In this document: positions 61,586 through 62,276 of the stretch, one piece after another | How positions within the stretch are numbered: position 1 is the stretch's first letter | Layout of the letters: each line of letters opens with the position of its first letter | DNA from: Escherichia phage P479 | Strand: one strand, 5' to 3' | DNA: 64,000 bases | Sequence record: MW269952.1 | Program-made: the position numbers and the translations under genes | Notes under the pieces: model-generated | Databases searched by the model: none | What the model was told of the DNA's origin: nothing | The model's input: only the letters and a program-made list of their open reading frames with translations

Positions 61586-61821
61586 TGTCTGAACAAACTA
61601 TTGAACAAAAACTGCAGTCCGAAATCGTTATCCTTAAATCCCGTATTCTGGACACTCAAGACCAGGCTGGCCGCATTAAAGCTGAATCTGACCAGTTTGT
61701 TAATGCACTTGGTCAGATTGCCCAGCTGGTTGGCGTGACCGGTGAAACTGTTAAGCTGGAAGATGTTATCCAGGCTGTCGCTGATAAAATTGCCCCGGCC
61801 CCTGCAGCTGACGAAGAATAA
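61585..61821 (+). CDS. 57A: tail-fibre assembly chaperone gp57A
   Basis: 78 aa (T4 gp57A 79 aa); synteny. Confidence 0.75.
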
Positions 61822-62276
61822 TGACATTAAATGAAGTCTCTGAAGGACTTTATGTTGCAGCCAAATTTTCAGAATTAACTCTTGACGCGCTGGAAAATCT
61901 CCAGCGCTCTCTTAAAGTACCTAATCCCGTTCCTCGCGAAAAATTCCATTCCACCATTTGTTATTCCAGAGTAAATATTCCGTATGTTGTTGCTTCTGGT
62001 AGTTTCGAAGTCGCTAACTCTGGACACCTGGAAGTATGGAAAACCGATGATGGTAGTACCCTGGTTCTTGTACTGAATTCAGATTATCTTAGTTGCAGAC
62101 ATATGTATGCACGAGCCATTGGCGCAACACATGATTTCCCGGACTATACTCCTCACATAACATTATCCTATAATGTTGGTCCTTTGACGTATAAAGGAGA
62201 AGTTCAGATTCCGGTTGTTTTAGACCGTGAATATAAAGAACCGCTAAAATTAAATTGGTCGGCGGATTTAAAGTAG
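61821..62276 (+). CDS. 57B: gp57B-like 2H-phosphoesterase-type protein (Acb1-like anti-CBASS candidate)
   Basis: 151 aa (T4 57B 152 aa); two H-x-T/S motifs (FHSTI, PHITL) as in 2H phosphoesterases; synteny after 57A. Confidence 0.65.

Follow-up and report, generated by a model that had tools for sequence, protein, structure and literature searches.

The 151 amino acid (aa) open reading frame (ORF) that starts with ATG and occupies positions 61821..62276 on the plus strand of the 64,000-nucleotide stretch of Escherichia phage P479 analyzed here (MW269952.1; hereafter, the whole stretch is called the window) is almost certainly gene 57B, that is, acb1, of a Gaprivervirus, a VR7/SP18-like T-even coliphage, with the mechanism and the genomic neighborhood proposed below. 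The predicted product is a 2H phosphoesterase directed against the cyclic oligonucleotide-based antiphage signaling system (CBASS). The Acb1 assignment is strongly supported by matches in Pfam and the PDB, the identity to the phage T4 protein, the conserved gene order and the ratio of nonsynonymous to synonymous substitution rates (dN/dS), and nothing contradicts it; the earlier note on this DNA, which described the product as an Acb1-like 2H phosphoesterase, is thus upheld.

The 57B protein matches the Pfam family “Anti-CBASS protein Acb1” (PF23474) with 200.3 bits, against a gathering cut-off of 27 (E=1.5e-59), with residues 8-148 spanning positions 1-143 of the 144-position profile, and the Pfam scan revealed no second family at E<=0.01. 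The PDB sequence search aligned residues 9-147 of the protein, at 69% identity (E=3.7e-62), with the Acb1 of Erwinia phage FBB1 (7T26/7T27), covering 139 of the 144 residues of 7T26_A. Sequence identity of about 69% to a crystal structure implies a conserved fold, and it is because of this match, rather than on the strength of an AlphaFold model, that the protein is assigned the compact 2H phosphoesterase fold. The homologs from T4 (gp57B, NP_049750.1) and from phage RB32 are both 83% identical to the protein encoded in the window. At the DNA level, the identity to T4 57B is 74%, with 0.71 differences per synonymous site (pS) and 0.13 per nonsynonymous site (pN); the resulting dN/dS of about 0.06, with synonymous sites near saturation, indicates strong purifying selection on the gene. 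A tblastn search with the protein matched 1,478 phage records, with identity of at least 99% in 30; more than 30 phage genomes encode an identical or near-identical protein, and the copy in EAWsc9, which differs by one residue, is already annotated as “anti-CBASS protein Acb1”.

The function of the T4 ortholog is well established. Gene 57B of T4 was identified as Acb1 by activity-guided fractionation for degradation of cyclic GMP-AMP (cGAMP) (Hobbs et al., Nature 2022; PMC9117128), an identity that was demonstrated both biochemically and genetically. The same work showed biochemical activity for T4 Acb1 and 9 other homologs, found that expressed T4 Acb1 counteracts CBASS, and compared a T4 deletion mutant with the wild type on CBASS-carrying hosts (PMC9117128). 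The gene has been further reported to be conditionally essential under CBASS (bioRxiv 10.1101/2025.11.20.689424); in vivo protection from CBASS has been demonstrated for T4 only (PMC9117128; bioRxiv 10.1101/2025.11.20.689424).

The translation contains exactly two H-x-[ST] motifs, the FHSTI and PHITL reported in the earlier note: KF-H43-S-T45-IC (codons H43-S44-T45, 61947..61955, plus strand), which corresponds to H44/T46 of T4 Acb1, and TP-H112-I-T114-LS (codons H112-I113-T114, 62154..62162, plus strand), which corresponds to H113/T115 (PMC9117128). Although both motifs are indeed present, taking the pair as a hallmark of 2H phosphoesterases is another matter: by itself, it is not beyond chance and is weak evidence, given that at least two HxS/T motifs occur in 15% of 20,000 shuffles of the 57B protein (at least two HxT in 2.8%) and in 7 of the 47 other six-frame ORFs of 100-250 aa in the window. 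It is homology that is decisive. The residues named in the T4 enzyme include the catalytic tetrad H44/T46/H113/T115, the stacking residues Y12/W74/F107/W147, E141 that contacts N6 of adenine, and a C-terminal lid (PMC9117128). The T4 residue numbers are those of the window protein plus one, and the alignment shows that all these residues are retained as Y11, H43, T45, W73, F106, H112, T114, E140 and W146, as is the lid tail LNWSADLK; conservation of every catalytic His/Thr pair in this alignment speaks for the proposal of the earlier note. The HxT/HxT tetrad falls in the same alignment columns as in T4 and FBB1 and is invariant in 8 homologs down to about 30% identity; together with Y11, it is invariant across the homologs from Krischvirus, Acinetobacter, Aeromonas and Klebsiella phages and a portal protein fusion from a Pseudomonas phage.

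The T4 and window proteins are of nearly the same length (152 and 151 aa, respectively), are both encoded after 57A with an overlapping start codon, and share all functional residues, whereas the 26 substitutions between them are mostly N-terminal and located at positions without a named function; the window protein has one N-terminal Met fewer, and T4 belongs to a different genus, Tequatrovirus. The FBB1 enzyme (7T26, apo; 7T27, complex with 3'3'-cGAMP) likewise possesses the HxT/HxT tetrad and the lid Trp but differs in having F and Y at the positions of W73 and F106 of the window and T4 proteins (window numbering) and a one-residue insertion after position 79. The Acb1 homolog of Klebsiella phage phi1_146054 (2468-3091), which scores 161 bits against PF23474, has a C-terminal extension of about 50 aa and a Lys aligned to the lid W146, and may represent a variant lid or an altered specificity.

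The gene context tells the same story. The 3.1 kb around 57B are 93-98% identical to Gaprivervirus phages PSD2001, TH41, UPEC01, VR7, VR20 and SP18. The gene order in the window is 4, a GIY-YIG endonuclease, 2, an HNH endonuclease, 3, 1, 57A, 57B, four small ORFs and a trna.4 homolog, compared to 4-2-3-1-57A-57B-ipI-trna.4 in T4 and 57B-Ip5-Ip9-Ip7-tRNA.4 in RB32; given this shared order, the window gene is the positional ortholog of T4 acb1. The location of 57B after 57A, in the block 3-1-57A-57B, is common to T4, RB32, EAWsc9, UPEC01 and the Krischvirus, Acinetobacter, Aeromonas and Klebsiella phages. In the window, the ATG of 57B overlaps the TAA stop codon of the 78 aa ORF of 57A (61585..61821) by one base, in a TAATG junction. 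Minus-strand ORFs of 50-64 aa across 57B were dismissed as lacking support, and because no RNA genes were detected by Rfam (E<=0.1) in 60000-64000 or by ARAGORN in 57000-64000, no hidden RNA feature overlaps the acb1 locus.

As the earlier note pointed out, 57B lies just upstream of an array of internal protein (IP) genes tagged with a capsid-targeting sequence (CTS): the first CTS-bearing ORF starts at 62337, 60 nucleotides past the 57B stop codon, and three more follow. All four cassettes are encoded on the plus strand and lie in the polymorphic slot bounded by 57B and trna.4, which in T4 is occupied by ipI. Cassette a (62337..62669, 110 aa, N-terminus MNIKTYNEFLAE) is IP-like, belongs to phrog_3966 (unknown function) and is 100% identical in EAWsc9. 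Cassette b (62678..62950, 90 aa, N-terminus MKTFNEFFNE) is an ortholog of Ip9, with 80% identity to RB32 Ip9 and a match to phrog_7673, internal head protein (E=1.7e-56), and is the only one of the four that matches a named IP. Cassette c (62959..63258, 99 aa, N-terminus MQTFHEFLVE) matches phrog_2667, internal head protein (E=2e-21), and the IP-like cassette d (63322..63600, 92 aa, N-terminus MKTYQEFINE) matches phrog_15565, of unknown function (E=1.6e-45). The CTS of internal proteins ends in an L/I-x-E cleavage site for the prohead protease. The signature of T-even IPs (MKTYQEFIAE-like; compare MKTYQEFISE in RB32 Ip9, MKTFKEFINE in RB32 Ip7 and MKTFKEF in T4 IPI) is present in all four cassettes, and the protease site fits in a (MNIKTYNEFLAE), c and d. 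An upstream ATG at 62304 was rejected as the start of cassette a because it lies inside the -10 region of a promoter-like repeat (see below), whereas the ATG at 62337 is preceded by a GGAG Shine-Dalgarno sequence and matches the start annotated in relatives. By eye, cassette a (62337-62669) contains an internal duplication, with copies beginning DGVFFQIGNERFQTS and GGMAYFKIGDEQFIMS. In EAWsc9, cassette a is labeled “profilin” and cassette c “homing endonuclease”, despite the capsid-targeting N-terminus and the lack of a match to any endonuclease family. Capsid targeting of Acb1 itself was ruled out, its N-terminus being devoid of a CTS; therefore, Acb1 would be made after infection, whereas the IPs would arrive with the DNA.

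The cassettes are interspersed with three repeats that resemble the promoter-early stem-loop (PeSL) elements of the cassettes in hyperplastic regions of T4-type phages, for which the T4/PST consensus is TTTACW-N17-TAYWAT (Arbiol et al. 2010; Comeau et al. 2014; PMC4122927, PMC2839356). Element 1 (62277..62320; TGTACA-N17-TATTAT; hairpin at 62285-62317, -14.8 kcal/mol, z=-2.0) begins directly past the 57B stop codon, where the conserved block gives way to the variable IP region. Element 2 (63267..63310; TGTACA-N17-TATAAT) has the hairpin GATGGGATA...TATCCCATC (-17.3 kcal/mol, z=-2.8), and element 3 (63601..63646; TGTACG-N17-TATGAT) has a hairpin of -21.4 kcal/mol (z=-4.5). All three are near-identical, lie on the plus strand and were recognized through the repeat families, with the promoter scan additionally identifying elements 1 and 2. 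Like the PeSL cassettes, they consist of an intergenic sigma-70-like promoter, a stable hairpin and a Shine-Dalgarno sequence, a unit that recurs next to small accessory ORFs of a hyperplastic region, and two of the window copies each match the T4/PST consensus at 5/6 + 6/6 positions; the -35 hexamer, however, reads TGTACA/G where the consensus has TTTACW, and the promoter and terminator roles are predicted. Homologous elements occupy the place of element 1 in T4, RB32, UPEC01 and EAWsc9, and the same type of element flanks ipI in T4 and every IP gene in RB32, UPEC01 and EAWsc9, and a relaxed pattern matched at only four other sites across the other 60 kb of the window. Other copies were noted at positions 2878, 3860, 4194 and 4504 of the UPEC01 sequence and at reverse-complement positions 3563 and 3930 in T4. 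Between cassette d and trna.4, UPEC01 carries a fifth cassette (84 aa) that is absent from the window. Element 3 is a chimera, with the left half identical to copy 3 and the right half identical to copy 4 of UPEC01, the two copies that flank this extra cassette; such a chimera is what repeat exchange would leave and is consistent with gain or loss of cassettes by recombination.

In T4, the role played by the CTS of IPs and the blocking of GmrSD by IPI* have been described (PMC3012670), and each of Ip1, Ip2 and Ip3 has been shown to act as an inhibitor of a different GmrSD enzyme (Silas et al. 2025; PMC12373910). The four IP-like proteins of the window probably have a counter-defense role, by analogy with these T4 proteins. 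More specifically, we tentatively suggest, at somewhat short of even chances, that the four CTS proteins would be injected inhibitors of different host defenses, for example, of distinct GmrSD type IV enzymes, swapped as promoter-flanked cassettes via the PeSL-like repeats. The locus resembles those of other T-even phages (IPI*, Ip2 and Ip3 of T4; Ip5, Ip7 and Ip9 of RB32, T2, T6 and K3) in the slot, the MKT(Y/F)xEF tag and the flanking promoter/hairpin repeats. It differs in containing four cassettes, as opposed to one in T4 and three in RB32. No window cassette is an IPI homolog, three of them fall into PHROGs without an assigned target, and the anti-restriction role is putative. In this comparison, IPI is the T4 IP that was compared directly, and for T4 Ip2 and Ip3, only the PDB and family searches bear. 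Thus, the counter-defense neighborhood claimed in the earlier note holds as a description that matches the reports of Hobbs et al. and Silas et al., whereas the role of the IPs is by analogy only.

Several results set limits to this picture of the enzyme and its surroundings. No NCBIfam model matches the 57B protein, and a single-sequence AlphaFold2 prediction of the 151 aa protein, for which no alignment was supplied, yielded pLDDT of 39 and pTM of 0.32, values too low to inform on the fold. Cassette b has F-N-E instead of the canonical L/I-x-E at the expected protease site, with the first L-x-E found at residues 13-15. In BLASTP comparisons, cassettes a-d share only the N-terminal tag with T4 IPI and with each other; the PDB sequence search with the four IP-like proteins produced nothing credible (best E=0.47, to a hemolysin), and neither Pfam nor NCBIfam matched any of the four. 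Finally, in distant T4-like phages (Krischvirus, Acinetobacter, Aeromonas and Slopekvirus-like), acb1 follows 57A, but there are no CTS-bearing genes downstream.

The adjacency of acb1 and the IP genes could be historical rather than a selected “island”, in which case the end of the conserved block would simply abut a recombination-prone hyperplastic region that gathers any accessory cassette. This is a genuine possibility, albeit not the one we favor. In the same four groups of distant phages, the block 3-1-57A-57B is kept and the genes downstream of it are unrelated; furthermore, acb1 is translationally coupled to 57A, a tail-fiber chaperone gene, and the IP cassettes have PeSL-like promoters of their own (predicted) and differ among near-identical phages. 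Conversely, the slot after acb1 repeatedly holds counter-defense genes, namely, ipI in T4 and, in Krischvirus Ec_Makalu_003, a gene annotated as Dmd, and anti-defense genes are known to cluster (PMC9117128). The Makalu_003 gene (3682-3876), annotated as an inhibitor of the RnlA/LsoA toxins, a label that comes from annotation alone, lies two ORFs downstream of the Acb1 homolog, which hints that the slot after acb1 gathers other counter-defense genes in other lineages. The island and synteny explanations are compatible and not mutually exclusive.

The mechanism of the window enzyme can be carried over, by orthology, from the T4 and FBB1 enzymes. As we infer it, 57B would be a monomeric, metal-independent 2H phosphoesterase, in which the cyclic di- or trinucleotide produced by the host CD-NTase (3'3'-cGAMP, cUA, cAAA or other AMP-containing signals) would be clamped between Y11, W73, F106 and W146. 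The C-terminal lid would then shut and the adenosine would be twisted, so that, with the H43/T45 and H112/T114 tetrad, the 2'-OH of adenosine could attack the 3'-5' bond in a transesterification reaction. The resulting 2',3'-cyclic phosphate intermediate would be hydrolyzed to a linear 3'-phosphate product that would be unable to activate the CBASS effectors, and abortive infection would be averted.

Expression of the gene, which closes the deeply conserved block 3-1-57A-57B and is translationally coupled to 57A, is probably middle/late, from the TATAAATA motif inside gene 1. This T4 late-promoter-type motif, identified by motif search on the plus strand at 61367..61374, about 210 nucleotides upstream of 57A/57B, and at 62661..62668, over the end of cassette a and just upstream of cassette b, is present in 22 copies in the whole window, compared to 4.7 expected. 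Middle/late expression of 57B has been reported in T4 (bioRxiv 10.64898/2026.03.30.715471), and the positions of the two putative promoters fit this timing as well as the need for IPs in prohead assembly. The remaining part of the scheme is that, behind the PeSL-like repeat, the hypervariable slot, occupied by ipI in T4 and here by four capsid-targeted IP cassettes, would supply proteins that probably are packaged in the head, undergo trimming by the prohead protease and are injected along with the DNA, and that, by analogy with T4 Ip1-3, probably inhibit restriction-type defenses. Most of the TATAAATA copies (16 of the 22) have minus-strand orientation and, apart from one at 145, lie at about 18-48 kb, a set that would fit a late structural gene cluster transcribed opposite to the 4-2-3-1-57A-57B block.

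We consider it unlikely that the main target of the enzyme is not CBASS but other cyclic-oligoadenylate signaling, such as cA3 in type III CRISPR, or that acb1 is equally a liability that triggers Panoptes-type guards. Type III CRISPR systems are uncommon among E. coli, and this interpretation extends the same chemistry without replacing the CBASS function. Acb1 does degrade cA3 in vitro, and the Acb1-encoding Tevenvirinae Bas35-37 are restricted by both type I and type II Panoptes, with escape mutants that inactivate acb1 (PMC13577387); nevertheless, CBASS sensitization of acb1-deficient T4 has been directly shown (PMC9117128; bioRxiv 10.1101/2025.11.20.689424). It is highly improbable that 57B is a LigT-type 2'-5' RNA ligase or a 2',3'-cyclic phosphodiesterase acting on RNA ends, for example, in tRNA repair: the “RNA ligase” label is indeed carried by phrog_755 and many RefSeq records, and Acb1 is a member of the same 2H superfamily and reacts via a 2',3'-cyclic phosphate (PMC9117128), but this label stems from remote-homology annotation rather than experiment, Pfam yields no LigT or 2'-5' RNA ligase match at E<=0.01 and only Acb1, with no match in NCBIfam, the residues that stack on the bases of cyclic dinucleotides and the lid are kept in the window protein, and the T4 ortholog is the cGAMP-degrading activity recovered by activity-guided fractionation, which counteracts CBASS in vivo.

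Outside the window, we observed fusions of the Acb1 domain with structural proteins. In Pseudomonas phage psageK9 (NC_074661.1, 1052-2854), the Acb1 domain (PF23474, E=1.9e-43), with the HxT/HxT tetrad intact, forms the C-terminus of the portal protein (PF06381). A tblastn search with this domain detected it under portal or head protein annotations in about 40 phages, the carriers including phiPSA1-like Pseudomonas phages, RHEph04-like Rhizobium phages, Sinorhizobium and Synechococcus phages and Pseudanabaena phage Pam3, and the existence of such fusions accounts for the weak PDB match of 57B to the Pam3 portal. In large roseophages, the Acb1 domain is found near or under a “prohead protease” annotation. 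The portal-Acb1 fusion may represent the anti-CBASS nuclease in a form carried by the virion; within the searches made, we found no description of it in the literature.

Gene 1, at its T4 position, encodes the dNMP kinase (60908..61585, plus strand; PF21448 DNMK, E=4.3e-77) and 57A, the stop codon of which overlaps the 57B start, encodes the tail-fiber assembly chaperone (plus strand; PF17594 GP57, E=4.6e-25). As in T4, the IP slot is bounded on the right by the trna.4 homolog (63658..63843, plus strand; phrog_1692), which encodes a hydrophobic, probably membrane-associated protein of 61 aa with 66% identity to T4 Trna.4. The mechanically delimited ORF of gene 3 starts at 60252 (60252-60911), whereas relatives annotate 600 nucleotides, so that the gene probably begins at the ATG at 60312 (MSGLYNQ...). 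The conserved late block is interrupted by two inserted homing endonuclease genes. A GIY-YIG/NUMOD3 gene (58099-58746) is located between genes 4 and 2, with a copy at the same site found in the phage collection only in PSD2001 and vB_YenM_P8. Between genes 2 and 3, there is an HNH-type, mobB-like gene (59552-60226) that is 61% identical to RB32 ORF146c and is present in VR7/VR25. No record in the phage collection covers more than 81% of window positions 57600-60950, which is consistent with none carrying both endonuclease insertions.

Because Hobbs et al. 2022 had described the T4 acb1-ipI adjacency as an anti-defense island (PMC9117128), the finding of a T4-type Acb1 gene beside IP cassettes is already known biology, here in a close relative of T4, and the assignment, although correct, is not new; descriptions of the polymorphic IP locus and of the repeats flanking it date back to the 1990s, as cited in later papers. 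The correct annotation for this gene is acb1 (anti-CBASS cyclic-oligonucleotide phosphodiesterase) and neither “RNA ligase” nor “hypothetical protein”, the labels given in the majority of related GenBank records. For phage therapy candidates of this genus, acb1 predicts resistance to CBASS and also sensitivity to Panoptes-type guards, which fire on cyclic-nucleotide depletion. The IP cassettes are reasonable candidates for new injected anti-restriction proteins, an idea that is already current in the field. If the four CTS proteins are indeed a set of injected inhibitors, acb1 and the IPs would together form a modular arsenal that combines “inject first” with “express later”, and some of its members could be anti-restriction proteins with new folds or targets.

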